Source: an uncultured Verrucomicrobiales bacterium
GTDB lineage: Bacteria > Verrucomicrobiota > Verrucomicrobiia > Verrucomicrobiales > DEV007
Direction: 5' to 3'
Length of the DNA stretch: 64,000 nucleotides
Assembly (NCBI GenBank): GCA_938091905.1
Contig: CALKOM010000006.1
Location: 32,001 to 96,000 of the forward strand
Below are positions 32,538 to 54,876 of this stretch, in pieces. Within the stretch, counting starts at the first letter, position 1; each line of letters starts with the position of its first letter. The position numbers and the translations under genes were made by a program. The notes under the pieces were generated by a model. That model saw nothing but the letters and a program-made list of their open reading frames with translations, searched no databases and was not told where the DNA came from.

Positions 32538-32662
32538 GTGAGCTCATCGAACAACGAGCTAGCGTTCATCTCGAGTGCGCCTATTTCCGTGCCATTCGGT
32601 CATAAGCGCGATGTTCCAGCGGTCAGTCTAGACCATGGGCCATCTGGGGCTAAGGTGTAGTG

Positions 32663-35356
32663 ATGAACCTTTGTCGTCTCGCCTCTCTGCTCTTGCTGAT
32701 AAGCTTGAGTTGCCTTCAAGGACAAGACGCCGTCGGAACGATTGCCCCTGTAGAGTTTTCTTTGCGCGATCAGACGTTCGCGGAGTCGATGGTGTTAGAG
32801 TTGAGCTGTAGCACAGAGGGGGCAGTGATCCGATATTCTACGGATGGAAATCCGCTGACCTTGTTCAACTCAGCTGTGTATACGAAGCCACTCACCATCA
32901 ATGGGACTACTTGGATTCGTGCGCAGGCATCCGTTTCCAAAGAGTCTAGCGTGATCACGAGTGGTCATTACATTCATTTGGCGGAGGATGTGAGGGACTT
33001 CGAATCGCCATTGCCAATTCTGGTGCTGGAGAACTTTGGTCAAGGTCGCGTTCCTTCCAAGGATTGGAATCAAACCGGTGCGGGTGTTCAGCAAGTGGCG
33101 AGACAGCGTGCCCAATGGTTTCTCTTTGATCGCGATGATGAAGATGGCATCAGTCGGTTGCAACGCGAGCCTAACCAATCCGCGAGACTCGGGGTGCGAG
33201 TGCGGGGGGCCTTCTCGTCTTCCTTTCCCCGAAAGCCATTCTCTGTCGAAGCGTGGGACGAAGAGGATCAGGAAACAGCGATCAAGCCTCTTGGAATGCC
33301 AAAGGAATCGGATTGGGTCCTCTATCCGCCGAATGCCGTGCAGGATCGGACGCTACTCTACAACACATGGTTGTATGACTTAAGTCGTTCGATTGGTGGC
33401 AATGCGATGCGTTTCCGGTTTACCGAAGCCTTTGTCCATACAGATGGCGGGTCCTTGTCGATGGATGACCATGCGGGAGTGTATGTCATCCTGGAGAAAG
33501 TGAAACGCGACGGCAACCGTCTCGATTTCCCCCAACTCTCTGAGGACGGTAAGGAGGGAGGGTGGCTTCTGAGCATCAATCGCATGGATCCGATCCCGGT
33601 TGGCGGCTATCCGACAGCCAATGGAGCCACGGAGCCGCAGTTCTTTCATACGGCTGGACCAAACCGGAATTTGCAAACCTCACCCAATCAAGCGGGACGC
33701 GGTGATGATATTCCTCGTCAGGGAAACGCTTTTATCAATTTCGAATCGCCTAACGGGTATGCGATCAATGAGGCGCAGCGTGATGCGATCGAGGGTTGGT
33801 TTGAGACGTTTGAAGACGTGCTCTACAGCAATCATTTCCGCGATCCCGTGAATGGCTATCGGCGCTATTTGAATGTCGATAGCTTTGTCGACTACTTCAT
33901 TCTGCACGACATCACGCGGAACACCGATGGTCTTCTCATTAGCATGTGGGTTTACAAGGAAGGTCCTGAGGCCAAACTCAAAATGGGGCCGGTATGGGAT
34001 TACGATCTGGCCTACAAAAGCACGGCAACTTCTAGCCTAGCAATAAATCGTGATCGCCTCTGGTATGCGCGTCTCTGGCAAGATCCAGATTTCGAGCAAC
34101 GCTATAGCGATCGCTGGCAGGAGTTGCGGGCTGGGCCCCTGTCGGACGAAGCGATTCATGCTCGAATTGATAGTCAGGCAGCTGAGATCACCGAGGAGGT
34201 GGCCAGTAGGCATGGCGTTAGCAGTTGGGGATCGCGCCTCACGATTTGGAAGAATTGGATCACTGATAGAGCGGCGGCGATTGACAAGAAATTTGAACCT
34301 CGGCCCAAGATTGTTCAGCCGAGTGGTAAGATTCACATCGGTGCTCGGGTATCCCTCAAAGCGGGCACCATTTTCTCTGCGCGTGATATTTATGTTACTA
34401 CGGATGGTACAGATCCGAGAGCGCCGGGCGGAGCTGTGGCGGATCAAGCGTCCTTGCTGGATTCTAGCGTTTCGCTTGAGAAGTCGACCCAGATACGCGG
34501 CCGCGTCTTGCATAAGGACACCTGGAGCGGGCTTGTCGAGGCGTGGTATTTCGTTGAAGAGGAACCTGTATCGATAGTGAATCTTGGAATCTCCAAGATT
34601 CACTATCATCCTTCGGACCCCACGGCTGAAGAGATTGCTGCAGGATTTGACAACGACGATGACTTTGAGTTTCTCGAATTTAGGAACCTCTCGGAGCAGA
34701 CGTTGCATCTTGGAGGAGCACAGTTCTCGGACGGTATCGACTTCACCTTTGGTGCCGAGACGATTTCTCCGCAGGATAGGGTGCTGCTTGTTCGGAATAG
34801 GGAGGCTTTTGAGCGGCGCTATGGAAATGCGCTTCCCGTGGTGGGGGAGTACGAGGGGAGCCTTCGGAACTCTGGGGAATCTTTACGATTGTTAGATTTC
34901 GGCGGGAATTTGATTGAAGAGATTGAATTCAATGATCGTGGTTCCTGGCCAAGGTCTGCTGATGGGGACGGTCCCAGCCTCGTGCGGATGGAGTCCTCAT
35001 CGAATGGCCCGTTCGCATGGCGTCCAAGTGTTTCTGATCAAGGGGCTCCTGGCATAGATGATCAGCTTAAATTCGACGGTGTTTCCAATCTGATTGAGTT
35101 CGCTTTGGGATCTCGAACTCCGGTGAACGTCTCCCGAGAGGAAGACACCGACCGTGCTGTCTTCTCTTATCAACGCAATCTAGCAGCCCACTCGGCTATC
35201 TTCGTAGAGACGTCTTCAGATCTCTTGGACTGGACAGTTTTAGATGCAGTCCAAATTGACCGCCAGTATCTAACGCTGGGAACTGCTGAAGAGCGGTTGT
35301 CTGTGCCAAAGGAACATGCTGGCGCCTTCTATCGTCTTCGTATTGAGTCCCCCTAG
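32663..35356 (+). CDS. Secreted CotH kinase + lamin tail domain protein
   Basis: RVRGAFSS..PRK, ESDWVL, GVYVILEKVKR, RNTDG, GPVWDYDLA; LTD motifs ISKIHYHP and FEFLEFRN. Confidence 0.88.
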   Translation: MNLCRLASLLLLISLSCLQGQDAVGTIAPVEFSLRDQTFAESMVLELSCSTEGAVIRYSTDGNPLTLFNSAVYTKPLTINGTTWIRAQASVSKESSVITSGHYIHLAEDVRDFESPLPILVLENFGQGRVPSKDWNQTGAGVQQVARQRAQWFLFDRDDEDGISRLQREPNQSARLGVRVRGAFSSSFPRKPFSVEAWDEEDQETAIKPLGMPKESDWVLYPPNAVQDRTLLYNTWLYDLSRSIGGNAMRFRFTEAFVHTDGGSLSMDDHAGVYVILEKVKRDGNRLDFPQLSEDGKEGGWLLSINRMDPIPVGGYPTANGATEPQFFHTAGPNRNLQTSPNQAGRGDDIPRQGNAFINFESPNGYAINEAQRDAIEGWFETFEDVLYSNHFRDPVNGYRRYLNVDSFVDYFILHDITRNTDGLLISMWVYKEGPEAKLKMGPVWDYDLAYKSTATSSLAINRDRLWYARLWQDPDFEQRYSDRWQELRAGPLSDEAIHARIDSQAAEITEEVASRHGVSSWGSRLTIWKNWITDRAAAIDKKFEPRPKIVQPSGKIHIGARVSLKAGTIFSARDIYVTTDGTDPRAPGGAVADQASLLDSSVSLEKSTQIRGRVLHKDTWSGLVEAWYFVEEEPVSIVNLGISKIHYHPSDPTAEEIAAGFDNDDDFEFLEFRNLSEQTLHLGGAQFSDGIDFTFGAETISPQDRVLLVRNREAFERRYGNALPVVGEYEGSLRNSGESLRLLDFGGNLIEEIEFNDRGSWPRSADGDGPSLVRMESSSNGPFAWRPSVSDQGAPGIDDQLKFDGVSNLIEFALGSRTPVNVSREEDTDRAVFSYQRNLAAHSAIFVETSSDLLDWTVLDAVQIDRQYLTLGTAEERLSVPKEHAGAFYRLRIESP

Positions 35357-35372
35357 CCCAACTCCCTGCACC

Positions 35373-38300
35373 ATGCGTCTTGCTTCTCTTCCTCATTGCT
35401 TAGTGATTGTTATGTTTCTTTCCGAAGTGTCTGCGGAGGTGATCATCTCAGAGTTCTTAGCTCGAAATGAGACTGGCCTGAAGGATGAGGATGGCCAATT
35501 GGCTGACTGGATTGAAATTGAGAATACCGGATCCGAGGCGGTCAGTCTTGAAGGATGGACCCTCACAGATAACCTGAATCGCCCGCGCAAATGGGATTTC
35601 CCGGCCGTGAGTCTGCCTGCAGGCGAGCGCCGAACGATTTTTGCCACGCGGAAAGATCGGAGTGGGCCGGAGGGTGAATGGCACACGAACTTCCGGCTAT
35701 CGGCTCCAGGAGAAACGCTGGCCATCTTTATGCCTGATGGAGAAACCGCCGCCGATCAGATCGAAGCCGCGCCGCAGTTTGATGATATCAGTTTTGGGCG
35801 AGACGGCGTGACTGGGCACGTTGGCTATTTGGATAGGGTGACACCAGATGAAACGAACGGAAGTCTGGTCTATTCGGGTCCTGTGATCTCAGACGTCTCC
35901 TACGCGCCGGTTCCGTTGATGCCGGGTGACGATGTGGTGATCACGGCACGTGTGACGGCGCGGGAATCGGATATTCAAGAGGTGAAACTGCTATCAGTGG
36001 TTGCTTTTGGCTCGGTCGGCAATGGCATCACGATACGTGATGACGGCGAAGGCGATGATGCCGAAGCTGGAGATGGACTTTACACGGGCGTCATTTCTGG
36101 AAGAACGCTCTTTGGGCCGAAGGTCAAGGCGGGTGAAATGGTGCGCTGGGCAGTGACAGCGACAGATGCGAATAACGGTAGTTCGCGGCTGCCGACCTTT
36201 CTCGATCAGGAGGGTGTCGAGCAATCGCCAGAGTTCTTTGGTACGGTCGCTGCGGCGACGATCGATACGGAGCTGCCGGTATTTGAGTGGTACACGGGCG
36301 ACGAACGCAACTCAGGCACTCGAACTGGGGCACGGGCCTCGGTGAGCTACAATGGGAATTTCTATGACAACATCTTTGTGAGAGCCCGGGGCGGAGCTAC
36401 CAATGGGCAGTCGCAGAAATTTAACTTCAACAACGCTTTTCCGTGCTTCGTCGATGAAGATCTTCCCGCCGTGGGGGAGTTGAACCTCAATGCCCAGGGA
36501 GGAGATTCCACGCATTTAAGGCAACCGCTAGCTTTTGAGAGCTATACCTGGATTGGCAATGCAGCTTGCAAGTCATTCCTCACAGTGATGCGGTTGAATG
36601 GGAAAGAGGACCGCACGGGCGTTCTGATTGAGCAAGTCGATGAAGATTTCCTCGAACGTCATGGTTTCGATCCGCTAGGCGATCTCTACAAGATGGTGCA
36701 GAGATCGAACTTGGATCCTGTCTTTGCTGATACGACCACGGGTATTGAGAAGAAGACGGGCGATCTGTCCGACCTAAGTACGTTCGCATCACTTGTTGAG
36801 GGGCTCGATAAGGAAGACCAAGAGTTGAAGGCCTACATGTTTGATTCACTGAATTTGCCTCAAGTGTTCAATTACCTTGCTATGCGCTCCATTACGCAAG
36901 ATGCGGACGATGTGAGGAAGAATTTCTACGTCTACAATGATGTCTTAGATACTGGAGAATGGTCCATCTTTCCTTGGGACAAAGACTGGACTTTCGGCAT
37001 CACGGGAGATGGAGGCCAGCATTTGAAGCACCCTTTCTTTGCTGATCAAGCGCATCGCAAGGACAATGCCAACCAGTGGAACAAGCTCTATGAAGCCATC
37101 TTCAACGATGCGACGACTCGGCAAATGTATTTGAGGCGTCTGCGCTCGGCGATGGATGCGACTCTCCAGCCTAGCGACACCCCAGAAGCGGAACTGCGCT
37201 TTGAGAGTCGTGTCGATGAACTCTTTGCCCAAGCGGAGGGCGATGTGCCGAGTAGTGGGCCAAGAACGGTGAAGCGCTTCTTTCCAGAGCGTCGTGGCGA
37301 TCTCTACGAAACGTATTCTGGACTGATTCCGAGTGCCCAAGAGGCGATGCCGGCGATCCAGATTGGTGACGTCGAGTTCCAGCCTGCTTCAGGGAGGCAA
37401 GACGAGGAATTTATTCAGTTGGTTAATAAGGCCCGAACCGCAGTGGATGTGTCAGGGTGGGAATTGGATGGAGCGGTGAAATTCACGTTTGCTGAGGGAA
37501 CTGTCTTGGCAGCTCGCAGCTTGTTTGATCCGAGCATCTCGACGTCGCTCTACGTTTCCCCAAATGTGAATGCCTTTCGTGCGCGTTCGGAAAGTCCCAC
37601 AGGAGGCGAGGCCCACTTTGTCCAGGGGCCGTATCGCGGTCATCTCTCCAATCGCGGCGAGACCATTGTCTTAAAGGATAGCGAGGGGAACATCATCGCA
37701 GAGAAGACTTATGAAGGAAATCCTACGGATGTGGAGCGTTACCTTCTTCTGTCAGAAATCATGTACCAGCCTGCAGATCCTAACGGTGAGGCGGAGTTCA
37801 TCGAACTCTACAATGCAAGCGATTCGGTGGAACTCGATCTCACGGGGTTGCGGTTCACGGATGGAATCGACTTCGCCTTTATGGAGGGAACGACGCTTGC
37901 GCCCAATGGGTACTTACTGATTGTCAGGAACCGAGCAGCTTTTGAAAGCGTCTATGGGGGCACGGTGCCGATCGCCGGGGAGTTTGCCAATCAATCACGT
38001 CTCAACAACGCCGGCGAGCGGATCAAATTGGATAACGCCCTCAATAGTACGATCTTTGAAGTACGCTACAACGATAAGGAGCCATGGCCGACCGAGGCGG
38101 CTGGTATGGGATTGTCTCTCACTCTCGTGGAACCCGTCGCGGGCAGCGACTTCGAAGAAGTCGAGTCATGGCGGGCCAGCGCAGGCACTCCCGGGCAGCC
38201 TGCGGGCCCAGGTGGTGGCAATGATCTCCAAGATGTCGACAATGACGGAATAGTAGCTCTGCTAGAAGAGGCTTTCGGAACGAGCGACAATGATCCTGGC

Positions 38301-38549
38301 GCAGGGGCAGGTGCCGTTCGTGTCACTATTGAAAGCGACCGCCTGGTGGTGCGCGCCTCATTGGGGAACAGTGAGGGCATTGACCTGGCCTTGCAGACGT
38401 CTTCGGAGCTGACGGGTTGGGAAGACGGTGGCGATCGCTTTGCTCGGAGCGATGCGAACGGCTTGGCCATATGGACGAGCACGGTTGCGATTGGTGAAGC
38501 GGCGTTCCAAGCCATTCGTCTCGCGGCCACTCGACTTTTGGCTCCGTAA
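35373..38549 (+). CDS. Secreted multi-LTD + CotH kinase protein
   Basis: VIISEFLARN..DWIEIEN; DDG..DD.EAGDGLYT; RARGGAT, KNFYVY, PWDKDWTFG; two further LTDs; ATG 35373. Confidence 0.88.
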   Translation: MRLASLPHCLVIVMFLSEVSAEVIISEFLARNETGLKDEDGQLADWIEIENTGSEAVSLEGWTLTDNLNRPRKWDFPAVSLPAGERRTIFATRKDRSGPEGEWHTNFRLSAPGETLAIFMPDGETAADQIEAAPQFDDISFGRDGVTGHVGYLDRVTPDETNGSLVYSGPVISDVSYAPVPLMPGDDVVITARVTARESDIQEVKLLSVVAFGSVGNGITIRDDGEGDDAEAGDGLYTGVISGRTLFGPKVKAGEMVRWAVTATDANNGSSRLPTFLDQEGVEQSPEFFGTVAAATIDTELPVFEWYTGDERNSGTRTGARASVSYNGNFYDNIFVRARGGATNGQSQKFNFNNAFPCFVDEDLPAVGELNLNAQGGDSTHLRQPLAFESYTWIGNAACKSFLTVMRLNGKEDRTGVLIEQVDEDFLERHGFDPLGDLYKMVQRSNLDPVFADTTTGIEKKTGDLSDLSTFASLVEGLDKEDQELKAYMFDSLNLPQVFNYLAMRSITQDADDVRKNFYVYNDVLDTGEWSIFPWDKDWTFGITGDGGQHLKHPFFADQAHRKDNANQWNKLYEAIFNDATTRQMYLRRLRSAMDATLQPSDTPEAELRFESRVDELFAQAEGDVPSSGPRTVKRFFPERRGDLYETYSGLIPSAQEAMPAIQIGDVEFQPASGRQDEEFIQLVNKARTAVDVSGWELDGAVKFTFAEGTVLAARSLFDPSISTSLYVSPNVNAFRARSESPTGGEAHFVQGPYRGHLSNRGETIVLKDSEGNIIAEKTYEGNPTDVERYLLLSEIMYQPADPNGEAEFIELYNASDSVELDLTGLRFTDGIDFAFMEGTTLAPNGYLLIVRNRAAFESVYGGTVPIAGEFANQSRLNNAGERIKLDNALNSTIFEVRYNDKEPWPTEAAGMGLSLTLVEPVAGSDFEEVESWRASAGTPGQPAGPGGGNDLQDVDNDGIVALLEEAFGTSDNDPGAGAGAVRVTIESDRLVVRASLGNSEGIDLALQTSSELTGWEDGGDRFARSDANGLAIWTSTVAIGEAAFQAIRLAATRLLAP

Positions 38550-38611
38550 AACGATGTTCAAGAGGCTTCGTGGTTATTCTGGTGGACGATTCTTCTCTAG
38601 ACCAGGATCAG

Positions 38612-38774
38612 GAAGTTATTGAGGTCTTATTCCAGCCTTAAGACCAACGATAGAACCGTTAGCACGGTTGAAACGCGATGGCGTGATCGTTGTTCCAACG
38701 TTGCCCCTGACGGAACGGCAAAACCTATGATGGAATTGTTTAGTTAACTTCGCGCAACGCGGTCCTGTAACTTC
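38612..38774. ncRNA. Candidate structured intergenic RNA, family not recognised
   Basis: Several perfect stems including a three-way junction, inside a GAAGTTA/TAACTTC closing stem. Confidence 0.3.
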
Positions 38775-38777
38775 GAC

Positions 38778-38814
38778 AAAGAGAAAGGGGCACTCTCTGC
38801 AGAGAATGCCCCTT
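38778..38814 (-). terminator. Intrinsic terminator of the large LamG gene
   Basis: AAGGGGCA-C-TCTCT-GC-AGAGA-A-TGCCCCTT hairpin followed on the - strand by TCTCTTT, about 30 nt after the stop. Confidence 0.7.
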
Positions 38815-38843
38815 GTAGTCGATTGATTTGTACTGAACCGATC

Positions 38844-41800
38844 TTACTGCTCAACGCCTCGGTAGTAGCCGGCAGCTCTTCCTAGGCGTGCGGCATCACT
38901 ATCCTCGAAGTTGATCTCGCCTTGCAATCCGGGCTCGACTACCTCCCAGGTCTGCAAGTCTTGCGAGTACTCGATGTTGTAGGTCGTGTTTGCCGCGCCT
39001 GTGAAGGAGACGCCGATGCTGCCAGGGCCTGAGACAATGGCAATAACCGGTGCTTCTCCAGCTGGTGGCGGTTTGACTGGGCCCAATGTCAGGATCTGAT
39101 TTAACGATGCGCCAGAGGTGGCGAGCGTCACCACTTCGTCATTGGTCAGTGGGCGTGTCCAGAAGGCGATATCATCGATGAGGCCATTCCAGGTCCGGTC
39201 TGCGGTGTCTGGGTTCTGACCGATCATCATGGGCATTACATTATCCTCGAGAGTCGGCGCCAAGCCTTCCTCAACGAGCTCACCATCCACAAAGAGACGC
39301 ACGGCGACATCGGGCTCACTTACGAGGGCGATATGATGCAGCTCACCATCATTCACATCGGGACCTTCTCTGGCAATGTCACCAGCGCCCCCATTGCCAA
39401 CCAGGCGGTTTGTGTCGCCGCCCTGACGGTGGATGCGCCATTGATTCTGTTCCCCCTTCGCTGCCAAGGCTTGCCAGCCTTTATCAAATCCATCGACCCG
39501 AAACCAGGCCGATACGGTGAACCCTGTCGGATTGTCAGGGGCTCCAAAGTCGAACAGATCTTCATTCGCAAGCGGTGTTTCGATGTATTGACCGGCGCCA
39601 TCGAGATCGACGCCTTGGCCAAAGGCACCTTCGGTGAAGGTGAGGTCTGCGGCGGGATGATCGGCGAGTAACTCGGGCATGTCTTGTTTGTCGCCGCCTT
39701 CCCAGACTTTGCCGACGCCATGGCTGTTGCCGGCTGTGTCCTGCAAGTCGCCGTCGAGCGGGTAATAGGCCACCAAGCCTTCCGCCAGCGAGCTGTTACC
39801 ACTGCTTGGGAGGGCGCTCACTATGACGTTGTCGAACTGGATGGTTTCCGTGGCACCACCCGTGCGCGCACCAAAGGCGATCCGCATGGCAGGTGTCGCT
39901 TGGAAATCGTCGAGCGCCAACTTGTCGTAGATGGTCTCGCCATCGACAACCACGGTCACGCCGACACCCGGCTGATAAGTGATGCTAATCGGGTGAAATT
40001 CACCATCGAAGTTGTAGAAACGACTGTCTTTGATGTCTTCCCCATCTTCAAGACGCTGGATCTCAACGTCGTTGCCGTCGAGACTGACATCGATGCCAAT
40101 GCCCGTGGCAGCGCCTTCACCACCATTGTTCCAGGTATCAAACTCCACTGCCAAGCCACTACTATGGCCTTCTTCACCAGCTGTGGCACCGTCATCGATT
40201 TCACCATAGTTGAAGGAGAACCCATCCGCAGGCTGACCTTCAGCTGCGAGTAGCAGATCCGCCTCAAAGACAAAGCCATCGGCGAGATCGGCAATAACCG
40301 GTAGTTTATAGCTAGCGCTTTCACTTCCAACGCCATCTTCAGTGAGTTGCAAGGCTTGATCGACGATCTTCGTGGAGCCTTGATTACTGGAGAGAACAGA
40401 GCCATCTCTCAGATCGGTCTCATCATTCGCGTAGGCATCGAAGTTGTTCTCATAATGAATCGGCACGATCCCACCAGCATCGATCGATTGGATGAACTGC
40501 AAGGATACACCACTGAGAATAGCATTACCGTCAGCGAAGCCAGCATCCGTGCCGTTCAAGTCGATGACGACATCGCCGGCTTCGGTCTGATTGAATTCGT
40601 AAATGAGGTAGGCAGCAGAAGCACCACTATAGTCGCTTTCTTGGAACGCGTTCGGGCTGAAGGATTCAACGATATCTTCTCCATCCACTTTGACGAAGAA
40701 GCCGCGGTCGCAACACTTCTCACCAAAGATCATTTGTAAGCGATAGGCGCCGCGGTCCACATCCTTGAGCGTCACGACGACACCTGAGGGTTGGCCCGAC
40801 CAGCGAATACCACTGGCGACCTTGGCCAGACCAATGCCTTCAGGCGAATCACCGAAGTTATTGGCTGCGGCCCAATCTTCGATGTGATTCGTTGCTTCGA
40901 TTACAATATTGTCAGGAGCTGGGGTGTCGGCGAGGAAGAGGATATCACCCACCTGCACGTCTTCTTCGGTCTCGGCCACATTGACCGCGTGGGTGAATGA
41001 ACCGGTGATGGTCAGATCACCGAGGGTGTCTTCGGCAAGTTTCCCCACGAGCACTTGCTCATGGATAGGCCCACCTTCCTGATTTCCAGGACTGTTAGGA
41101 TCGAGAGGGTCGAAGCCGTTGGCCACTTCAAAAGAGTCGCTGAATTTGTCGCCATCGGTGTCACGATTGGTGGGACTCGTTCCAAATTCGGCTTCGCGGC
41201 CGTTGGTTAAGCCATCACGGTCATTGTCACCGTCTGAGAAATCGTTAGGGTCATTCCCGCTGGCAAGTTCAGCCGCATCTTCAAAGCCGTCATCATCGGA
41301 ATCTACAGAGAGCGGGTTGGTCTCATGGATGTTCACTTCCGCTCCGTCTTCGAGACCATCGCCATCGGTATCGACCAACAAGGGATCCGTTCCAAGCTCA
41401 GCCTCCAGGTTATCGGCCAAGCCATCGCCATCGCTATCGATGGGCGCATTGTCGCCCACTGGCAGCGACAAGCCTGGGGAGTCTTTCAATTGACCGACTT
41501 CATCCGCCGTGATGATTCGATTGTAGATCTGCACATTATCAAAGGTGCCGTCCAGGGGCAGGCCCCCATTGTAAGAGCTGAACTGAAACGCGAAGGATCT
41601 GTTGTCCGTCAATACCAATGGATCTGGCAAGCTGTTAGCCACGCCATCGACATAGATAGTGGCGCTTCGAGCTTCCGGCGTGTTGTCATAAACGAGCACA
41701 ATGTGATGCGCTTGCCCTGCGACTAAAACGTTCTCTGCTACGAACTCTGGATTCTCCCCGGCAGATTCTGGGAGCCACGCTAACGAGCTGTCTATGGCTA

Positions 41801-43190
41801 GAAGCGCGAAGGCTGGTGTGCCAATGTTACCTCGAGCGAAGACAGTCCCGACGTTGGCACTCAGGGCGTCTAGTTGCATCCATAACGAAACACTAAAGTT
41901 GTCCAGTGCTTCGATGCCTTCCACCACGAGTTCGCCGCCGCCGGAAGTCTTCAATGCGGTGCCTCCTGAGAGGCCCTCAGCACCAAGCTCAGCCGTGCCA
42001 GCTGGTATGAGCAAAGTTCCGTTGTTTCCATTACCAGAAATATCGGCCACCTCGAGATTACCAATGGCCTCATCGAGCTGCAAATGGGTGAGTGGGCCAA
42101 GACGATTGATCACACTGGCGGTCAAGGGAACCGTGATGGCGGTTTCGGTTTGGTCATTGCTAGTAATCTCCATCGTAGCATTGAACGCGCCCGTTCTGCC
42201 AGCCGGATCAAAGCTCACCTCAAGCTCCGCTTTGGGTTCTGGTGCACCATCCACGCCAGTGTCGGCAGGCACCGTGACCGGCAATGCCGTCAGTACTGTG
42301 AAATGGGAGGCATCCGGGCCGGTGATCGCAATGCTAGAAACCTCCAAATCTGTGGTGGGTCCGGTATTGCGTATTCGAAACGTATTGACTGTCGCAGGTG
42401 TGGAGGACACCTGCCCGAACTTGAGTGCCGAGCCGGACAGCAAATTGGGGTCATCATCGCTGGTATTTAGCGTGTGCACCACCAAACCTTGAAGAATGGG
42501 ATTGTTGTCCCCACCCAACTGATCTTGGCCACCAATGTGTTGTTGCATGATGATATTAAGTTCGCCATCACCTGAGGCTTCGAATTCTCCCACATACACA
42601 AAGGTGTTCTCAGGAGACCAGGCATCAGGATCTTCGTTGGTGCCTTCAGAAGTGAAATCGTCCACTGTTAAGACATCATTGACCGAGATGTCCCAGTGCC
42701 GATCACGATCGGCACCTTCATTGACTAAGATTTGGACTTCGTAGAGGCCGCCACCATCGAGACCGGACACATCCATGGTTAAAGGGCTAGGTGCTGCTGA
42801 CCAACGGATGTCCTCCATGATGGCAGACAGATTGTCCGCCGAATCGCCATCACCACCGCTGAAGCCTGGTGCTGCGGCCCAGCCATCGATAAAGTGTGTG
42901 GATGTCAAGTCGACCCGCACGCTTTCGCGTTCTACCAAGCCGATGGTATTGTCATCCGTCTTATCAGTTTGAAAGAGGACGCCGTTGACTTCGCGATCTT
43001 CATCCCCAAAGACATCCACAGCGACCACGACAGTGTCAGGGTCGAGATGCAATTCATCGGGGCTGGTGATTTGGAGGATCCTGCCGTTGCCATCGTCTTC
43101 ATTGAGAACGATGGTCTCGGCAGCTAGCGGTGTTGTGTGAACGATAAGAAATGTCGTCAACATCACCTTGAGTGAGAGGTGTAGTTTCAT
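38844..43190 (-). CDS. Large acidic secreted protein with LamG/concanavalin-like domains, an Ig-like domain and Ca-binding DxDxDG repeats
   Basis: Signal peptide; LamG ends GTFDNVQIYNR and GLIDDIAFWTRPL; DSDGDGL/DTDGDGL repeats; legume-lectin-like ADGFSF..LAVEFDTW; IRNTGP...ITSND. Confidence 0.85.
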   Translation of the reverse strand: MKLHLSLKVMLTTFLIVHTTPLAAETIVLNEDDGNGRILQITSPDELHLDPDTVVVAVDVFGDEDREVNGVLFQTDKTDDNTIGLVERESVRVDLTSTHFIDGWAAAPGFSGGDGDSADNLSAIMEDIRWSAAPSPLTMDVSGLDGGGLYEVQILVNEGADRDRHWDISVNDVLTVDDFTSEGTNEDPDAWSPENTFVYVGEFEASGDGELNIIMQQHIGGQDQLGGDNNPILQGLVVHTLNTSDDDPNLLSGSALKFGQVSSTPATVNTFRIRNTGPTTDLEVSSIAITGPDASHFTVLTALPVTVPADTGVDGAPEPKAELEVSFDPAGRTGAFNATMEITSNDQTETAITVPLTASVINRLGPLTHLQLDEAIGNLEVADISGNGNNGTLLIPAGTAELGAEGLSGGTALKTSGGGELVVEGIEALDNFSVSLWMQLDALSANVGTVFARGNIGTPAFALLAIDSSLAWLPESAGENPEFVAENVLVAGQAHHIVLVYDNTPEARSATIYVDGVANSLPDPLVLTDNRSFAFQFSSYNGGLPLDGTFDNVQIYNRIITADEVGQLKDSPGLSLPVGDNAPIDSDGDGLADNLEAELGTDPLLVDTDGDGLEDGAEVNIHETNPLSVDSDDDGFEDAAELASGNDPNDFSDGDNDRDGLTNGREAEFGTSPTNRDTDGDKFSDSFEVANGFDPLDPNSPGNQEGGPIHEQVLVGKLAEDTLGDLTITGSFTHAVNVAETEEDVQVGDILFLADTPAPDNIVIEATNHIEDWAAANNFGDSPEGIGLAKVASGIRWSGQPSGVVVTLKDVDRGAYRLQMIFGEKCCDRGFFVKVDGEDIVESFSPNAFQESDYSGASAAYLIYEFNQTEAGDVVIDLNGTDAGFADGNAILSGVSLQFIQSIDAGGIVPIHYENNFDAYANDETDLRDGSVLSSNQGSTKIVDQALQLTEDGVGSESASYKLPVIADLADGFVFEADLLLAAEGQPADGFSFNYGEIDDGATAGEEGHSSGLAVEFDTWNNGGEGAATGIGIDVSLDGNDVEIQRLEDGEDIKDSRFYNFDGEFHPISITYQPGVGVTVVVDGETIYDKLALDDFQATPAMRIAFGARTGGATETIQFDNVIVSALPSSGNSSLAEGLVAYYPLDGDLQDTAGNSHGVGKVWEGGDKQDMPELLADHPAADLTFTEGAFGQGVDLDGAGQYIETPLANEDLFDFGAPDNPTGFTVSAWFRVDGFDKGWQALAAKGEQNQWRIHRQGGDTNRLVGNGGAGDIAREGPDVNDGELHHIALVSEPDVAVRLFVDGELVEEGLAPTLEDNVMPMMIGQNPDTADRTWNGLIDDIAFWTRPLTNDEVVTLATSGASLNQILTLGPVKPPPAGEAPVIAIVSGPGSIGVSFTGAANTTYNIEYSQDLQTWEVVEPGLQGEINFEDSDAARLGRAAGYYRGVEQ

Positions 43191-43242: not shown

Positions 43243-45156
43243 TCAATCATCAACGACTTGCGGCTCTACAATATGTAACTTTTGCGTATTCGGTGTGCCC
43301 ACTTGTTGCCGCACGCCGCTAGGCCACAGGACTTCCACTTGTGTTGCCTTTGTGTCACCAAGCCCGAAGTAGAGAGGTAACACCCCGTGCGAGAGGTAAC
43401 CCGTGACGCCATCGTGCACTTTGGTGTAGGTCTTCGAATTCGTCGTATGCACCTTCACGATCGCCCCGAGGCCATCACGATTGGATTGCGAGCCTTGTAA
43501 GGTGATCCTGAGTGACTGCACCGTGTGCTTCGCCGTCAGATTGCTGACCAAAACCATGGGCCCGTCGCCAAATTCATTGGTGACAATGTCTAGATCGCCG
43601 TCGTTCTCCAAATCAAAGATGGCCGAACTACGCGACCCTAACGCTGCCCATACTTCGACCGGCTTCGTGAGGCTGTGATCTTTCACCAAGCCGTGGTCTT
43701 TGTCATCACCAGTGGGATCAAGCGTGAACCAAGGCTTCGCAGTGCGCTCGTCCCGACGAGGTTCCACGCCGAGGATGAATTCGGTGTCTAAGAAGGACTG
43801 GCCTTGATTGTTTAGCAACACACTGTTCACGCCATAGCGGAAAGGGAAATTCATGCTCGCGGTGATGAAGACATCGTTCCAGCCATCCGCATTGAGATCT
43901 CCGACTGAGAGCCCCCAAGGCCAGTAGTTTTCAGTGCCGAGTCTATCAGAGATCTCATCGAAAGCTCCGTCAGCTCGGCCTTGGAAGAAGGTGTTGCCAA
44001 AGACGCTAGCGGCTTTCTCGCCAACCATGGATTCCGGCCAGCGCATCATCGACTTCAGTTTCTCCTGGTTCGGGCCTTGGGCTTCGCTCATGTCTGAATG
44101 CATGTCCGTCACAAAGAGGTCCATGAGGCCATCATTGTTGTAGTCCAAGGATTTGATGCCCATGGCACCCCAGGAGGTCTTTGGGAAGCGTTCCGCCGTG
44201 CGGCGCTCGAAGCGTTTGCCGTTCACGTTCTCGTAGAACTCGTCTGGCCCTTGCATGTTCGTTACGTAGAGATCTGGCCAGCTATCGCCATTCGGATCGA
44301 TCGGGCTGGCATCGCCGGTCCAACTCACGTCGTTTAGCTCCATGGCGGCGGACACTTCCTTGAATCGGTTGCCGCCAAGATTGTGATAGAGAAGGCTGCG
44401 CTCATTGCGTTCCTCCGGTTTCAAATGACCGGCAAAGGCGTCATCCACACCGAGGTGGTAGCCACCTTCTCCGCGCTGATCCGGCTTGGTGTAAACGCCC
44501 ACGTTGCAGACAAAGAGATCGAGCAGTCCGTCTCTATCGTAGTCAAAGAACACGCCCGCAGAAGAATGTCCCTTGTGGCCAAGTCCGGCTTGTTTGGTGC
44601 GATCAGTGAAACGCCCTTGGCCATCGTTTTCGAAGAAATGATTCCCATCCCGTACGGTGCTGACGAAGAGATCGGGATCGCCATCGTTGTCGGTGTCTGC
44701 AAACGAAGCTGCGACACAAACTTTATTTCCAAGGGCGATGTTAGGCGTGGTGATGTCTTTGAACTTTCCGCCACCGACATTCTTCCAGAGGCCATTGGAG
44801 CCGATTTGGTTGGTGAAGAAGAGATCGATCAAGCCATCGCCATCCACATCAGATGGGGCAATGCCATTTCCGTGATCGTAGTGCACCGGTTTGTGCAGTT
44901 TGGCTGAATCAGCCACGATCTGGTTCACGAAGGTGATCCCACTTGCGGCTACTTCATCGCTGAACTTAAAGTCATGGTAGACAGCGAACGAAGGGGTGCT
45001 GGCTAGCTGTAGCTGCTTCCGCGCTTCCATCCAATTCGGCTTCATCACGTCTGGAGGATAGGGAAACGGCTCCATTCCCCGAGCGACCGGGACCAGGAAA
45101 CATGCCAATGCGAGCCAGGACTCTAGACTTGGAAAGGGAGAGGTGGCTTGTTTCAA
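43243..45156 (-). CDS. CRTAC1-family protein (FG-GAP repeats + ASPIC/UnbV); start uncertain
   Basis: About seven DxDxDGxxDL blades, then NRDGLGAIV...GYLSHG..PLYFGLG...VLWPSG. Confidence 0.9.
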   Translation of the reverse strand: MKQATSPFPSLESWLALACFLVPVARGMEPFPYPPDVMKPNWMEARKQLQLASTPSFAVYHDFKFSDEVAASGITFVNQIVADSAKLHKPVHYDHGNGIAPSDVDGDGLIDLFFTNQIGSNGLWKNVGGGKFKDITTPNIALGNKVCVAASFADTDNDGDPDLFVSTVRDGNHFFENDGQGRFTDRTKQAGLGHKGHSSAGVFFDYDRDGLLDLFVCNVGVYTKPDQRGEGGYHLGVDDAFAGHLKPEERNERSLLYHNLGGNRFKEVSAAMELNDVSWTGDASPIDPNGDSWPDLYVTNMQGPDEFYENVNGKRFERRTAERFPKTSWGAMGIKSLDYNNDGLMDLFVTDMHSDMSEAQGPNQEKLKSMMRWPESMVGEKAASVFGNTFFQGRADGAFDEISDRLGTENYWPWGLSVGDLNADGWNDVFITASMNFPFRYGVNSVLLNNQGQSFLDTEFILGVEPRRDERTAKPWFTLDPTGDDKDHGLVKDHSLTKPVEVWAALGSRSSAIFDLENDGDLDIVTNEFGDGPMVLVSNLTAKHTVQSLRITLQGSQSNRDGLGAIVKVHTTNSKTYTKVHDGVTGYLSHGVLPLYFGLGDTKATQVEVLWPSGVRQQVGTPNTQKLHIVEPQVVDD

Positions 45157-46950
45157 TGGGGGATCAGAATAGAACTAACAGTCGCATGCAGTTTCGTCAT
45201 CCTAGCTCTCCTTGCGGCGTGTGGCGATGGTGAAAAGGCTGTTTCTGGATCCAAGCGCCGTGATTCGCCAGCTCCTCGCAAGGCAGAGATCACTTTCGGG
45301 GAAATGGGCATTCAAGGGCCGAGCGATAGCCGCGATTGGCCAACAGAAAGCTTCACGGAGCAAGCGAACAAGCAGCTATTTCGACTGAAGGCCTACTTCA
45401 AAGGACAGGCGGATTGGCCAGCCGACATGGTTTCAAAGGCGGTTGCTGACACGGTGTTGCGCCCATCCGCTCTGCAGACAGTTCTCGAAGATGACCACTT
45501 CTACATTCAGCGGGGAACGGGCGGAGATGGCGATACTCTGAGGGATCTTGCCGCTCCCTATCAATCAGAATCTCGGCACGCCAAGTTCAAGATATTTGAT
45601 GTCCGGCAGGAATCCAGGAGGGTTCAGACGAAGATCGCTGCGAGTTTGTCAGGGAAGACGGATCGTGGTTCGCAACAAGAGACCTCGACTTGGGAGGTAG
45701 CGTGGTCACTCGATTCTGACCCGCAGATACTGATCATCGAGCTTCAAGAGTATGAGGTGAGCCTAACGAAACGCTCGCAAACAGGAAGCGCGTTTCAGGA
45801 TGCGACTGAGGCGGTGTTTAAAGACGTGGCCGCTTATGGCGATCAGTTAGCCTATGGGGTCGATCACTGGGCGACGCGAATCGAAGCCGCTTTCGGCATT
45901 GGTGTGTCCGGTTGGGAAGGTCTCGCCTTGGGTGATGCGAATGGCGACGGCCTCGACGATCTCTACGTGTGTCAACCCGGCGGATTGCCAAACCGCCTCT
46001 TTATAAGGAAGCCGGACGGCACGGTGTTTGATGCTTCATCCTTCGCTGGCGTCGATTGGCGTCTGCAGACGCAGTCCGCTCTCTTTGTGGATTTGGACAA
46101 CGATCATGACCAAGACCTTGTTCTCGGCACGACTTTGGGCTTGATCCTCATGGCGAACGACGGTCGCGGCACGTTCACGGTGAAAGCTAGCCAGTTGATT
46201 CCGGAAGGTGCAGCCATGAGTTTATCGAGTGCTGACTTCGATCTCGATGGGGATTTGGATATCTACGTTACCAGTTATTCTCGCCGCCGCAGCATGAGTG
46301 GCGGGACAACGTTGTTAGGGCGTCCAATGCCTTATCACGATGCCAACAACGGCAGTCGCAACGTTCTCTTTCGCAATGATCGGGAGTGGAAATTTAACAA
46401 TGCGACAGTGGAGCTCGGGTTGGATGAGAACAACAGGCGGTTCAGTTTCGCAGCCTCCTGGGAGGACTACGACAACGATGGCGACCCTGATCTCTATGTG
46501 GCGAATGACTACGGTCGCAACAATCTCTATCGCAATGACAGGGATGAAGAAGGGTGTCATCAATTCGTCGATGTGGCCGCGCAAGCCGGCGTCGAAGATA
46601 TCTCCGCAGGCATGTCCGTCTCTTGGGGTGACTATGATGCGGATGGTTGGATGGATCTGTATGTAAGCAACATGTGGTCTTCAGCGGGAAACCGCGTGGC
46701 CTATCAGAGGCAGTTTCAATCGGGAGCTGACGCAGAAACATTGGTGGCGATGCAGCGGCATGCGCGAGGCAATTCCCTCTTCAGAAACTTGGGTGATGGA
46801 ACCTTTCAGGATGTGAGTGTGCATCAAGGTGTCACTCTGGGTCGTTGGGCATGGGGTTCGCGCTTCGTGGATCTGAACAGTGACGGCTGGGAAGATTTGT
46901 TCGTCGCGAACGGTTTCATCACCCAGCCGGATGACTCCGGTGACTTGTGA
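45148..46950 (+). CDS. FG-GAP repeat lipoprotein; N-terminal part of a CRTAC1-like protein ending at an in-frame UGA
   Basis: Purine-rich SD before TTG; LAAC lipobox-like motif; six DxDxDG blades; the frame continues past TGA as SFYWRQVVAQSP into the next ORF. Confidence 0.85.
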   Translation: MFQWGIRIELTVACSFVILALLAACGDGEKAVSGSKRRDSPAPRKAEITFGEMGIQGPSDSRDWPTESFTEQANKQLFRLKAYFKGQADWPADMVSKAVADTVLRPSALQTVLEDDHFYIQRGTGGDGDTLRDLAAPYQSESRHAKFKIFDVRQESRRVQTKIAASLSGKTDRGSQQETSTWEVAWSLDSDPQILIIELQEYEVSLTKRSQTGSAFQDATEAVFKDVAAYGDQLAYGVDHWATRIEAAFGIGVSGWEGLALGDANGDGLDDLYVCQPGGLPNRLFIRKPDGTVFDASSFAGVDWRLQTQSALFVDLDNDHDQDLVLGTTLGLILMANDGRGTFTVKASQLIPEGAAMSLSSADFDLDGDLDIYVTSYSRRRSMSGGTTLLGRPMPYHDANNGSRNVLFRNDREWKFNNATVELGLDENNRRFSFAASWEDYDNDGDPDLYVANDYGRNNLYRNDRDEEGCHQFVDVAAQAGVEDISAGMSVSWGDYDADGWMDLYVSNMWSSAGNRVAYQRQFQSGADAETLVAMQRHARGNSLFRNLGDGTFQDVSVHQGVTLGRWAWGSRFVDLNSDGWEDLFVANGFITQPDDSGDL

Positions 46951-46978
46951 AGCTTCTACTGGCGCCAGGTCGTGGCGC
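46948..46978 (+). promoter_or_regulatory. In-frame UGA plus a SECIS-like hairpin (candidate recoding signal)
   Basis: TGA, 11 nt spacer, then GCGCCA-GGTCG-TGGCGC; the apical loop starts with GG, 17 nt after the UGA. Confidence 0.55.
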
Positions 46979-48954
46979 AATCGCCGGTCGACGAAGTTCG
47001 CCCGGAAGAGGCTAAGGACTACCTGGGGAATTGGGACGCTCTCAGTACGATGATCACGCGAGGGCGCTCCTTCAGTGGTCGCGAACGTCACTGCGCCTTT
47101 CTCAATACGCGAGGCCAATCGTTCGCAAATGTGTCAGGTGGAACGGGGCTCGATCTCATCGATGATGGCCGTGGCCTAGCTGTGTGCGATTGGGACAACG
47201 ATGGTGATCTCGATCTTTGGATAACCCAGCGCAATGGGCCCCGAGTCCGTTTCTTGCGCAATGAGCTTTCTGAGAATGTGAATGCGTTGTCTGTTCGTTT
47301 AGAAGGCGCTACTTGCAACCGCGATGCCATTGGTGCTCGGGTTCTTGCGGAGACATCGAGTGGCCGGAAGCTTGTACGCACGTTGCGAGCAGGCGATAGC
47401 TTTCTTAGTCAATCTAGCAAACTCCTACACTTTGGGCTGGCCTCAAGCGAAACGGTTCTCTCACTCGCGGTGAGCTGGCCAGGGGAAACCCAACCCGAAA
47501 CCTTTCCTATAGATGGCATGAGCGCCTGTCTCCTCGTGCAAGGGGCGGGAGTTTCTAAACCCGAAGACCGCAAACGATCTCCAGAGCCGCTGGCGAGTTC
47601 GGTTCCAAAGGCACCTGATTCTCCGGACAGTTGGCGCTTGGTGCTCTTGCATCGGAAAGAGTTGCCCGAGATCAAGTATGTAGATTTCGAAGGCGATCTG
47701 AGGGCGCTCGAACCCAATGGTCCAACGTTGGTCACCCTATGGGCGAGTTGGTGCGCTCCATGTCTGAAAGAGTTAACAGCTCTTGCCGAAGCTGAAGAGA
47801 CGTTTGGGGCGAAGAACCTCAGGATCGTCGCACTCTGTACGGATGCGCTGGTGGACGGCGATGCCAGAGCAGATTTCGGTCCAGCCAAGGCTTTGGTGGC
47901 CAAATCTGGCTATCCGTTTGACCTTGGATTGGTCGATGCCGGTGGGGCTCAAGCGCTGTCAGGGATCCACTACCGCACGCTCGCGGTGCAACGGCCTTTA
48001 TCCCTGCCCTCAAGTTTCCTAACGGACGCGTCAGGTCGAATTGGCGTTCTCTATCAGGGACCAGTCAGCGTGGATCAATTGCTTGCGGACATTGATCTGC
48101 TAGGATCATCTGGAAACGTAATTGAAGCCGCCGCCTTTCCATTTCCAGGTCGCAACGGCGTCGAGCACTTCACGTTGACACCGTTGACCTTTGCCCAAGC
48201 GTACCACACCAGTGGGGACAGTGATGCCGCTCGTGCCTATCTCAGCGAACAATTGGCTGAACGCGAAGGAACGCTGAAAGAACTCTACTTCCTCGGCACC
48301 TTAGAACAGTCACAAGGCCACTGGGAAGCCGCTGTGGTTGCTTATGGGAAAGTGCTTAAACGTTCCCCTCAGCATCCTGCGATCCGTGTCCCTCTGGGCG
48401 TGGCCCTTTGGAAGACTGGTCGCTTATCCGAAGCCAAGGAGCACTTCAATGTGGCCGAGGCTCTCGGTCCCGAAAGACCAGCTGTCTGGGCGGAGCTCGG
48501 TCGTGCCCATCTTCAGATAGGTTTGCCCGCAGACGCGGTGACCTATTTCAACAAAGGCGGTCATCGCCAATTCGCTGCCAAAGCCTTGTTGGCGGCTGGT
48601 CAAGGGAAGCGGGCTGTAGCGATTTATGAAACGCTGTTGAAAGAGAATCCACAAGCTCACCAAGTGAAGAATGATCTCGCCTGGATCCTGGCAACACATC
48701 CAGAGATTTCGGTTAGAAATGCAAAGCGTGCACTCGACTTGGCAAATCAGTTAGCAAAGCTCTCGGGATTTCGAGATTTGTATGTCCTTGATACCCTGAG
48801 CGCTGCTCAAGCGAATACGGGAAATTTTGAAGAAGCGATCAAGCAGGCGACGACGGCCCGTCGGCTGGCACGGGCCGTCGGCCTCACCAAGCTGGCGGAA
48901 GAGATGAGCGACCGGCTTCGAGCCTATCGAAGCAAACAGCCTTTCCGGAAGTAA
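46972..48954 (+). CDS. Last FG-GAP blade + ASPIC/UnbV + TlpA-like redoxin + TPR; C-terminal part of the same frame
   Basis: DWDNDGDLDLW; NRDAIGARV...SFLSQSS..LHFGL; WASWCAPC; TPR helices and NDLAWILAT...LDTLSAA; in frame with 45148..46950. Confidence 0.85.
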   Translation: MAQSPVDEVRPEEAKDYLGNWDALSTMITRGRSFSGRERHCAFLNTRGQSFANVSGGTGLDLIDDGRGLAVCDWDNDGDLDLWITQRNGPRVRFLRNELSENVNALSVRLEGATCNRDAIGARVLAETSSGRKLVRTLRAGDSFLSQSSKLLHFGLASSETVLSLAVSWPGETQPETFPIDGMSACLLVQGAGVSKPEDRKRSPEPLASSVPKAPDSPDSWRLVLLHRKELPEIKYVDFEGDLRALEPNGPTLVTLWASWCAPCLKELTALAEAEETFGAKNLRIVALCTDALVDGDARADFGPAKALVAKSGYPFDLGLVDAGGAQALSGIHYRTLAVQRPLSLPSSFLTDASGRIGVLYQGPVSVDQLLADIDLLGSSGNVIEAAAFPFPGRNGVEHFTLTPLTFAQAYHTSGDSDAARAYLSEQLAEREGTLKELYFLGTLEQSQGHWEAAVVAYGKVLKRSPQHPAIRVPLGVALWKTGRLSEAKEHFNVAEALGPERPAVWAELGRAHLQIGLPADAVTYFNKGGHRQFAAKALLAAGQGKRAVAIYETLLKENPQAHQVKNDLAWILATHPEISVRNAKRALDLANQLAKLSGFRDLYVLDTLSAAQANTGNFEEAIKQATTARRLARAVGLTKLAEEMSDRLRAYRSKQPFRK

Positions 48955-53949: not shown

Positions 53950-54876
53950 ATGCCGGAGTTTCGCCCTCACCTTTCTGACTGGGAACCATGTCCCTATCTG
54001 CCAGTGCCGCACGAGCCGCTCACGCACCTTGTCATGGCACCCTTTGGCAAAGGCCGTGGCGAGGACTTTTATGAAACGGCGCTGACCTATGCGGGGTCGC
54101 TGTGGTTGCAGGGCTTGCCAGCTCGTAGTCTGCTGTTGATCAATCGGGCGCTCGGTGCGGATCTCACGGGCGATGAATCCATCCTTGAGACGTGGCCACT
54201 GCCTTATGCGGCCGTGCGTTGGATCTTGGAAAATCGCGTCGACGACGAGGCTCATTTCATTGGTAATCCGCGACGTCACTATCAGCATCTAGCCACACGC
54301 ATGGTGCCTCCACGCAAAACACAACGCAGTTGGCGTGCGTGGGCGTGTTGGTATCTCTCGGTGCAAGTGCTCCCGTCCGAAGATTATCCGGCCGACGAAC
54401 TCCAGATTCGCAATGAGGGTGTTGTCGAACCGACACCGGCACAGATTGGTGAGGCGTTGGAGTCTCATGGCATTTCGGGAGAACGAGTACTTTGGGAACG
54501 TGTCTCTAACAAGACCGAAACCGTGGTTGTGCTTGGTGCGAGTGATCGGCCGGAGCGCTATGCGCACAAGGCGATCCTTCAGCTGATGGATCATGGGCTC
54601 CAGGTTATTCCCGTACATCCGCGATTGAAAGAAGTGGCGGGTTTGTCGGTAATGGCAACGCTAGACACCGTGGAAGCTCCGGTGGACACGGTGACGTTGT
54701 ATGTAAATCCGAAGATCTCGGAGCCGATGGCGAATGCCCTTGTCGCGCTCAAACCACGGCGCGTGATCTTCAATCCTGGGACCGAGTCAGCTGAGCTCTC
54801 TGCGCGATTGCAACAAGCTGGCATCGCGACCGAGGATGCGTGCACCTTGGTCCTGCTAGCAACGGGCCAGTATTAG
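53950..54876 (+). CDS. Uncharacterised N-terminal domain fused to a CoA-binding (YccU-like) domain
   Basis: C-terminal VVVLGASDRPERYA, PVHP, VDTVTLYV, RVIFNPGTE, ACTLVLL.TGQY. Confidence 0.8.
   Translation: MPEFRPHLSDWEPCPYLPVPHEPLTHLVMAPFGKGRGEDFYETALTYAGSLWLQGLPARSLLLINRALGADLTGDESILETWPLPYAAVRWILENRVDDEAHFIGNPRRHYQHLATRMVPPRKTQRSWRAWACWYLSVQVLPSEDYPADELQIRNEGVVEPTPAQIGEALESHGISGERVLWERVSNKTETVVVLGASDRPERYAHKAILQLMDHGLQVIPVHPRLKEVAGLSVMATLDTVEAPVDTVTLYVNPKISEPMANALVALKPRRVIFNPGTESAELSARLQQAGIATEDACTLVLLATGQY

Follow-up and report, generated by a model that had tools for sequence, protein, structure and literature searches.

A locus in a 64,000-nucleotide stretch of DNA from an uncultured Verrucomicrobiales bacterium (contig CALKOM010000006.1; the whole stretch is called the window here) raises the question of whether an in-frame TGA that divides a long coding sequence separates two genes, reflects the decay of one gene, or is decoded as an amino acid. 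Two open reading frames (ORFs), 45148..46950 and 46972..48954, share one frame and are joined by a sole in-frame TGA at 46948-46950, so that the junction translates as ...NGFITQPDDSGDL-TGA-SFYWRQVVAQSP. A reading made earlier from the sequence alone, referred to below as the sequence-only reading, had described two same-frame ORFs split by one TGA with no other lesion in 3.8 kb, and translation of the whole gene agreed with it: no further in-frame stop was present across this distance, and the 667 codons downstream of the TGA are intact. The same reading had interpreted the UGA as a selenocysteine (Sec) codon, served by a selenocysteine insertion sequence (SECIS), in an exported CRTAC1-like redoxin-TPR protein. 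This interpretation is supported by conservation of the TGA, by cysteine in homologs, and by a covarying hairpin resembling that of fdhF. We consider it highly probable that 45148..48954 is one selenoprotein gene with a Sec-encoding UGA and a SECIS, specifying about 1,268 residues, and neither two genes nor a pseudogene. As a complete selenoprotein gene on the plus strand, it would comprise 1,268 codons in a single frame, including the Sec codon, followed by a TAA stop, with the TGA at 46948..46950 (+) read as selenocysteine, residue 601.

The conservation of the TGA was assessed at the protein and the DNA level. A protein search with the first ORF only, limited to lengths of 330-1050 amino acids, yielded matches of which the best 120, being 61-99% identical, were examined. 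These proteins contain FG-GAP domains only, and 119 of them end exactly at "...DL", the remaining one ending a few residues before; every close relative is thus "truncated" at the same residue. An alignment of N-terminal halves, run against the DNA of 185,579 species-level genomes, returned 611 stretches, 603 of them encoding a relative, and the best 80 of these 603 loci were kept for DNA comparisons. The loci were assigned to Verrucomicrobiota (38), Planctomycetota (31), and Acidobacteriota (10, with "Candidatus Multivorans" counted in this phylum). Of these loci, 79 have TGA as the junction codon, the exception being a gene of a Polarisedimenticolia metagenome-assembled genome (MAG) with TCG (Ser) at this position (L078). 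Inspected by eye, this exceptional gene (L078 11195) has stem mismatches downstream and a loop reading GGTGG instead of GGTCG; as a single control, it permits no statistics. Six further non-TGA regular-expression matches in the loci proved to be spurious peptides elsewhere and not junctions.

Taking the loci together with extra copies in their flanks and the window gene, 88 genes are of the TGA type; the internal codon is TGA in all 88, and TAA and TAG do not occur. The true terminators of these genes, counted for the 75 that are complete at both ends, are TGA (32), TAG (28), and TAA (15). In 80 of the 88 genes, at least 400 open codons follow the TGA; of the remaining eight, three run into a contig end, one contains a run of masked bases, and four, being shorter forms or cut loci, have 198-380 open codons. 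The read-through length of the 75 complete genes is 737-1510 residues, with a median of 1295. A private nonsense mutation, a pseudogene, or a sequencing error in one genome could be suspected, as TGA is one base away from the Cys codons TGC and TGT expected in the nearest uninterrupted homologs. The recurrence of TGA across three phyla (79 of 80 other genomes), the common end point of 119 of the 120 nearest proteins, and the 667 intact downstream codons make this explanation extremely unlikely; the first two counts exclude the cases that the sequence-only reading had named as fatal to its proposal, i.e., that the TGA is a private nonsense mutation or sequencing error, or that close homologs have a sense codon there.

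Downstream of the TGA, an 11-nucleotide spacer (46951..46961, +) is followed by a predicted SECIS hairpin (46962..46978, +) with a 6-bp stem, GCGCCA/TGGCGC, and a GGUCG loop, located within codons for W-R-Q-V-V-A. Spacer length, perfect stem, loop, and position are as the sequence-only reading had given them. In the window, the exact geometry with a perfect 6-bp stem follows 0.04% of positions, and about 1% if spacer and loop are relaxed; the hairpin alone is weak evidence, and it is by comparison with relatives that it goes far beyond chance. For this comparison, 83 junction sequences of 60 nucleotides from the first regular-expression scan were aligned, five extra copies being left out. The alignment has no gaps, spacer included, and the loop bases are 90-100% conserved. 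The stem withstood a covariation test: 98.0% of the cells in the 6-bp helix are paired, versus 13-66% after shifting the 3' partners by 1-3 columns, the covariation score was reached by none of 500 shuffles, and RNAalifold, unprompted, predicted the same helix. In three of the six stem pairs, both partners have changed; pair 27-37 is AU (32), GU (32), GC (10), CG (5), or UG (1), and pair 29-35 is AU (76) or GC (5). Some of the compensatory changes alter the protein, CGG with CCG giving Pro for Ser, CGC with GCG giving Ala, and the change from CAG/GTG to CGG/ACG giving Arg and Thr, which indicates that RNA pairing outranks the amino acid. At the same time, synonymous sites are frozen within the hairpin (Gln CAG 75/77, Val GTC 80/87, Val GTG 78/79, Ser TCG 64/65), whereas elsewhere in the same genes, taken as a control, an invariant Val is encoded by GTC (30), GTG (30), GTT (13), or GTA (4) and an invariant Arg by any of six codons. 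Judged from these alignments, the hairpin is under selection at the RNA level.

A pattern scan of the window and all loci for TGA, 9-14 nucleotides, a stem, and a GGTC loop retrieved five further copies of the same gene family. Two matches outside the family were also obtained (L062 14906, minus strand; window 30319, minus strand), both with short 5-bp stems and without the family context. In one paralog (L021 8106), the hairpin, inspected by eye, appears to pair only in a shifted register with a 4-nucleotide GGUC loop, as in fdhF of E. coli, and its main register was scored as unpaired.

The SECIS of E. coli fdhF binds SelB carrying Sec-tRNA(Sec). Written in parallel, the fdhF element reads TGA, 11 nucleotides, GGTTGCA, loop GGTC, and TGCACC, and the window element reads TGA, 11 nucleotides, GCGCCA, loop GGTCG, and TGGCGC. 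The two share the in-frame TGA, the 11-nucleotide spacer, a 5' arm ending in CA, a 3' arm starting with UG, an apical loop beginning with GGUC, and the location of the hairpin in coding sequence, and in the family described here covariation keeps the stem paired. Unlike fdhF, the window copy has a perfect 6-bp stem, a 5-nucleotide loop, and no bulged U, and its host protein is an exported propeller, not a cytoplasmic molybdoenzyme. A conserved UGA combined with a covarying hairpin of the fdhF layout implies that Sec would be inserted and translation would continue. Specifically, the UGA at codon 601 would be a conserved recoding site, and the hairpin 11 nucleotides behind it, with its GGUC(G) apical loop, would act as the SECIS; with Sec inserted, the ribosome would go on to translate the seventh blade, then the ASPIC domain, the TlpA-like domain with its CxxC motif, and the TPR repeats. 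Some ribosomes probably terminate at the UGA, resulting in a 600-residue fragment.

The UGA might instead be read through in a programmed manner by a standard residue (Trp, Cys, or Gly), with the help of the hairpin and with short and long isoforms as products. Such readthrough would fit the facts that Sec machinery is not shown for the source organism and that the aligned residue is highly variable in distant homologs. It is made very unlikely by the spacing and GGUC apical loop shared with the SelB-binding fdhF element, the near-complete conservation of the loop bases, the Cys in the nearest sense-codon homologs, and the full Sec machinery that passages of a genome study attribute to planctomycetes with ASPIC/FG-GAP candidates (Kim et al. 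2016, PMC4807772). Leaky readthrough retains a small probability, but nothing calls for it. In the same genome study, full Sec-insertion gene sets are reported for the planctomycetes P1, P2, Gemmata obscuriglobus, and Isosphaera pallida, and P1 and P2, the hosts of the candidates, have selA, selB, selC, and selD (PMC4807772).

UGA could also be a sense codon throughout the genome. The 36 ORFs of the window end in TAG (17, the commonest), TAA (10), or TGA (9), and since 8 of the 35 other ORFs have TGA as their terminator, one of them within an ATGA overlap at 57594, the genetic code is taken to be standard. No second TGA in the window has long open frames of real coding sequence on both sides, and 32 of the 75 complete family genes themselves end in TGA. 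With nothing in its favor beyond codon 601 itself, genome-wide reassignment of UGA has a negligible probability.

A conserved split gene would leave the code and the stop as they are: the UGA would end a 600-residue six-blade protein, a second protein would re-initiate near the GTG at 46972, and the hairpin would serve coupling or mRNA stability. Gene callers and databases indeed treat the halves as separate proteins ("VCBS repeat-containing protein," "FG-GAP repeat domain-containing protein"), and the GTG lies 21 nucleotides past the stop. However, the internal stop is invariably TGA, whereas the terminators of the same genes use all three stops. The seven codons from the TGA to the GTG specify S-F-[FY]-W-R-Q-V, a motif that is also translated in uninterrupted homologs, and the GTG is replaced by ACG, GCG, CTG, TTG, or GTA in several loci, with the pairing of the stem kept each time; the downstream ORF has no conserved start codon of its own. 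Moreover, the cut would fall inside one seven-blade propeller that is modeled confidently as a single domain. Taken together, these points make a split gene very unlikely, and recoding of the UGA by Sec remains the interpretation followed below.

Homologs without the interruption were collected by a full-length search in which residues 440-800 served as the scored region and lengths of 697-2219 amino acids were admitted. Thousands of uninterrupted proteins share the architecture, with a maximum identity of 59%. The residue aligned to the TGA is Asn (36), Lys (19), Glu (14), Ser (13), Gly (7), Asp (6), Cys (5), His (5), Ala (4), or others, the rows with Lys representing a separate 1,700-residue subfamily that is poorly aligned at this column; the flanks, DL-x-SFFWRQVV, are near-invariant. 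Cys is the usual counterpart of Sec in homologs, and it is present at the TGA column in the three nearest uninterrupted homologs (P0024, P0025, and P0033) as well as in P0046 and P0077, whereas Asn, Ser, Glu, or Gly predominate in the more distant ones. Tabulation of the junction codon thus gives TGA among the close relatives and Cys in the nearest proteins lacking it, in line with the sequence-only reading.

A tree was calculated with FastTree (LG+gamma) from 159 rows and 530 columns without the Sec column, with an arbitrary midpoint root. It compares 69 Sec-type proteins (those of the 88 with more than 1,100 residues and both ends complete) with 90 uninterrupted homologs, namely, the proteins with the junction motif among P0024-P0122; 9 lacking the motif were dropped, and P0003-P0023 were left out. 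The smallest clade to include every one of the 69 Sec-type rows comprises 95 tips, with a support of 0.64, and support is below 0.5 at several nodes. The 26 uninterrupted homologs within this clade, termed nested, carry Cys (4), Ser (7), His (5), Ala (3), Tyr (2), Asp (2), Glu (1), Gly (1), or Gln (1) at the column, and the 64 outside it, termed outer, mostly Asn. Tentatively, the tree fits an old Sec with repeated loss.

The domain architecture defines where Sec601 would be placed. Starting with TTG, the gene encodes an N-terminal hydrophobic signal (45148..45222, +) that, according to the translation, ends in a lipobox-like LAAC (Cys25); database protein P0123, which is 99% identical, begins at the same TTG codon. 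The protein is predicted to be exported and, as suggested by the LAAC motif, lipid anchored. FG-GAP propeller blades 1-6 follow at 45910..46947 (+) (Pfam FG-GAP_3, E value 2.3e-34; six DxDxDG motifs). Over the whole protein, seven DxDxDG-type blade motifs begin at residues 263, 315, 363, 440, 495, 575, and 681, so that codon 601 lies between blades 6 and 7, as had been noted from the sequence. Blade 7 and the ASPIC/UnbV domain occupy 47095..47517 (+), the UnbV_ASPIC part being located at 47326-47493 (PF07593; E value 5.6e-13, 49 bits versus a cut-off of 23.4). A TlpA/ResA-like thioredoxin-fold domain at 47710..48069 (+) contains the motif WCAPC, with the CxxC codons at 47752-47763. Its Pfam matches are borderline (AhpC-TSA 26.9 bits, cut-off 26; Redoxin 26.6 bits, cut-off 26.6), and sequence matches in the PDB to residues 836-963 are TlpA 1jfu (E value 2e-7), TlpA 4txo, and ResA 4nmu. 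TPR repeats (Pfam TPR_19, TPR_16, TPR_2, and others) extend over 48190..48654 (+). In the Pfam results, FG-GAP falls in the first ORF and UnbV_ASPIC, AhpC-TSA/Redoxin, and TPR in the second, which is the domain content that the sequence-only reading had listed (FG-GAP, ASPIC/UnbV, a WCAPC thioredoxin domain, and TPR). No EGF family was among the Pfam matches of the window protein, where redoxin and TPR follow ASPIC instead. No NCBIfam selenoprotein model scored above its curated cut-off; the N-terminal half matched no family, and the C-terminal half gave sub-threshold TPR and TlpA matches only.

AlphaFold2 was used to model residues 230-830, with Cys in place of Sec and an alignment of 96 rows. 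The model has a mean predicted local distance difference test value of 91.0 and a predicted template modeling (pTM) score of 0.93, and its top Foldseek match is murine CRTAC1 (9etn_A; E value 1.3e-24, TM scores 0.65/0.70), the next match having an E value of 3e-10. Like CRTAC1, the window protein combines an FG-GAP β-propeller with a subsequent ASPIC/UnbV domain; CRTAC1 is by far the best fold match and is also matched in sequence (E value 1.7e-9). Unlike it, the window protein shows only about 15% identity, and the CRTAC1 matches cover propeller and ASPIC, with none reaching into the redoxin/TPR region. Vertebrate CRTAC1 possesses a C-terminal EGF-like domain. To our knowledge, CRTAC1 lacks Sec as well as redoxin and TPR domains, no enzymatic activity has been described for it, and we know of no biochemical function of the CRTAC1/ASPIC family, even in animals.

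In the model, Sec601 corresponds to residue 372, the second residue of helix 371-380; this helix opens a two-helix insert between blades 6 and 7. Reactive thiols and selenols are usually placed at the N terminus of a helix, and Sec marks reactive sites. Cys649 (RERHC; 47092..47094, +), equivalent to model residue 420, is the first residue of strand 420-424, which we take to open blade 7, and is a candidate resolving cysteine and possible partner of Sec601. The occurrence of Cys649 and of the CxxC motif was compared between the groups of the tree. Among the Sec-type proteins, Cys649 is found in 59 of 69 and an intact CxxC in all 69. The corresponding counts are 4/4 and 3/4 for nested homologs with Cys at position 601, 8/22 and 16/22 for nested homologs with another residue there, and 2/64 and 12/64 for outer homologs. 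In addition, the CxxC was found in 74 of 74 aligned C-terminal halves of relatives.

Based on this co-occurrence and on the helix N-terminal position of Sec in the model, we propose a redox relay of Sec601, Cys649, and the CxxC motif as the specific function, a tentative assignment whose chances we put somewhat below even. In such a relay, Sec601 probably forms a selenenylsulfide with Cys649 in each cycle and would be reduced again by the CxxC domain of the same protein; the outcome would be an extracytoplasmic reductase or peroxidase on a CRTAC1-type propeller. For the idea, already contained in the sequence-only reading, that the WCAPC domain reduces the Sec site, co-occurrence is the suggestive evidence. 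The further claim that Sec601 and Cys649 form the catalytic center of a new class of extracytoplasmic selenoenzymes that have a CRTAC1-type β-propeller as their scaffold in place of a thioredoxin fold and are recycled by their own TlpA-like CxxC domain is a possibility that we would hold with reserve, as the less probable outcome. Enzymes that combine a reactive Sec with a resolving Cys include MsrB1 and some GPx. The window protein would resemble them in the location of Sec at a helix N terminus, a distant co-occurring Cys, with the pairing suggested by co-occurrence, and a thioredoxin-type reductant; it differs from them in having an unrelated fold and no known activity. It has the thioredoxin-fold domain with W-C-x-x-C in common with TlpA and ResA, but the Sec lies about 270 residues upstream, in the propeller, and the redoxin domain keeps two ordinary cysteines.

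Several observations weigh against Sec insertion or against the relay. The single-sequence local fold of the hairpin is no better than that of shuffles (z = 0.65), and Rfam gave no match for the whole window or for 46800-47150 even at E values up to 10, it being uncertain whether Rfam holds a model for such short bacterial elements. The wider family has no conserved Cys at the TGA column, and a Sec at such a position is atypical of catalytic Sec. Cys649 is missing from 10 of the 69 Sec-type proteins. In at least one Sec-type paralog (L021 2788, 807 residues), the redoxin domain is missing, so that the proposed relay cannot be universal; this paralog has U-S-C at the Sec site and also lacks the TPR domains, and a second Sec codon was looked for in the shorter paralogs and not found. 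Finally, tRNA scans detected no tRNA-Sec in the window or the 80 loci, and tblastn searches of the same sequences with E. coli SelA, SelB, and SelD gave solely an EF-Tu-like match in L020; the lack of tRNA-Sec, selA, selB, and selD in these 1.2 Mb of window and flanks is uninformative, because only about 20 kb per genome are covered.

In the literature, the recoding mechanism is the known bacterial one, whereas the protein family has hardly appeared in publications as a selenoprotein. Four rows of supplementary Table S9 of PMC4807772 list ASPIC/FG-GAP selenoprotein candidates in the planctomycetes P1 and P2. They have the same domain description as the window protein, and each is annotated as two adjacent genes; three of the four were positive with bSECISearch, and the residue aligned in the nearest NCBI match is Gly (PMC4807772), which is also among the residues at the TGA column of the window family. 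The comparison is by description only, and identity of their Sec position with codon 601 is presumed. The main text and S2 Text of PMC4807772 leave the four candidates undiscussed and contain no analysis of their conservation, covariation, or distribution. The family is missing from a 2026 inventory of 119 selenoprotein families (PMC13188914, Table 1), and term searches across the main text of that review revealed no FG-GAP, ASPIC, VCBS, or CRTAC1 family either. No FG-GAP, ASPIC, VCBS, or CRTAC1 family appeared in deep-Sep (main text and supplements), in BSepDB (main text and one supplement), or in the portions of the GOS paper supplements that were available. Full-text literature searches gave nothing else relevant, and mentions in other supplements or papers are possible. 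Peng 2016 and Zhang 2006 are silent on Sec use in Verrucomicrobia, and Zhang 2006 mentions Planctomycetes only as one of the phyla for which one or two genomes had been sequenced.

The gene occurs in multiple copies in some relatives: several loci and MAGs have 2-4 of them, two or three TGA-type copies stand in tandem or nearby in some loci (L002, L021, L034, L037, L070, and L074), and MAG UBA7890 has copies on four contigs (L001, L046, L062, and L063). Next to the window gene lies a divergent paralog without the Sec motif (43243..45156, minus strand; FG-GAP and ASPIC, 637 amino acids). The sequence-only reading was right in calling this neighbor unbroken, but the paralog is on the minus strand and only 26% identical; its listed TTG start overlaps the TTG start of the selenoprotein gene by 9 nucleotides.

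Giant secreted proteins with LTD and CotH-kinase or LamG/TSP3/DUF1573 domains adjoin the selenoprotein gene (window 32660..43190), and the same kind of neighbor occurs in 21 of 81 loci (e.g., L004, L015, L022, L057, L062, L064, and L075); we know of no functional link between them and the selenoprotein. A PVC-type heme-binding CxxCH protein (TIGR02604/TIGR02603; 54931-57597, +) places the window in the Planctomycetes-Verrucomicrobia-Chlamydiae (PVC) group. The window also contains a seryl-tRNA synthetase ORF (52591-54288, minus strand) with about 140 residues before Seryl_tRNA_N and an overlap with the opposite-strand ORF 53950..54876; its start is probably over-called. Seryl-tRNA synthetase is a housekeeping enzyme that also charges tRNA-Sec, and no inference is drawn from its presence.

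For annotation, the finding means that the gene is entered as two proteins ("VCBS/FG-GAP repeat protein" and "TPR protein") in at least 79 species-level genomes and in hundreds of database clusters, and a single rule, i.e., a TGA after ...GDL followed by the hairpin, could mend the split entries. The bacterial selenoproteome would gain a large, multi-copy, exported family from phyla seldom discussed for selenium use, and with about 1,300 residues its members would be very large for bacterial selenoproteins. Sec would reside in a β-propeller, whereas most characterized selenoproteins have a thioredoxin-like fold, as stated in the 2026 review (PMC13188914). In a family with no activity known so far, Sec points to the helix N terminus between blades 6 and 7 as the working site. 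If Sec601 and Cys649 do form a catalytic center, Sec would be ancestral to a superclade of proteins from Verrucomicrobiota, Planctomycetes, and Acidobacteriota, with repeated loss to Cys or inert residues, and the whole CRTAC1/ASPIC family would descend from or include redox enzymes.

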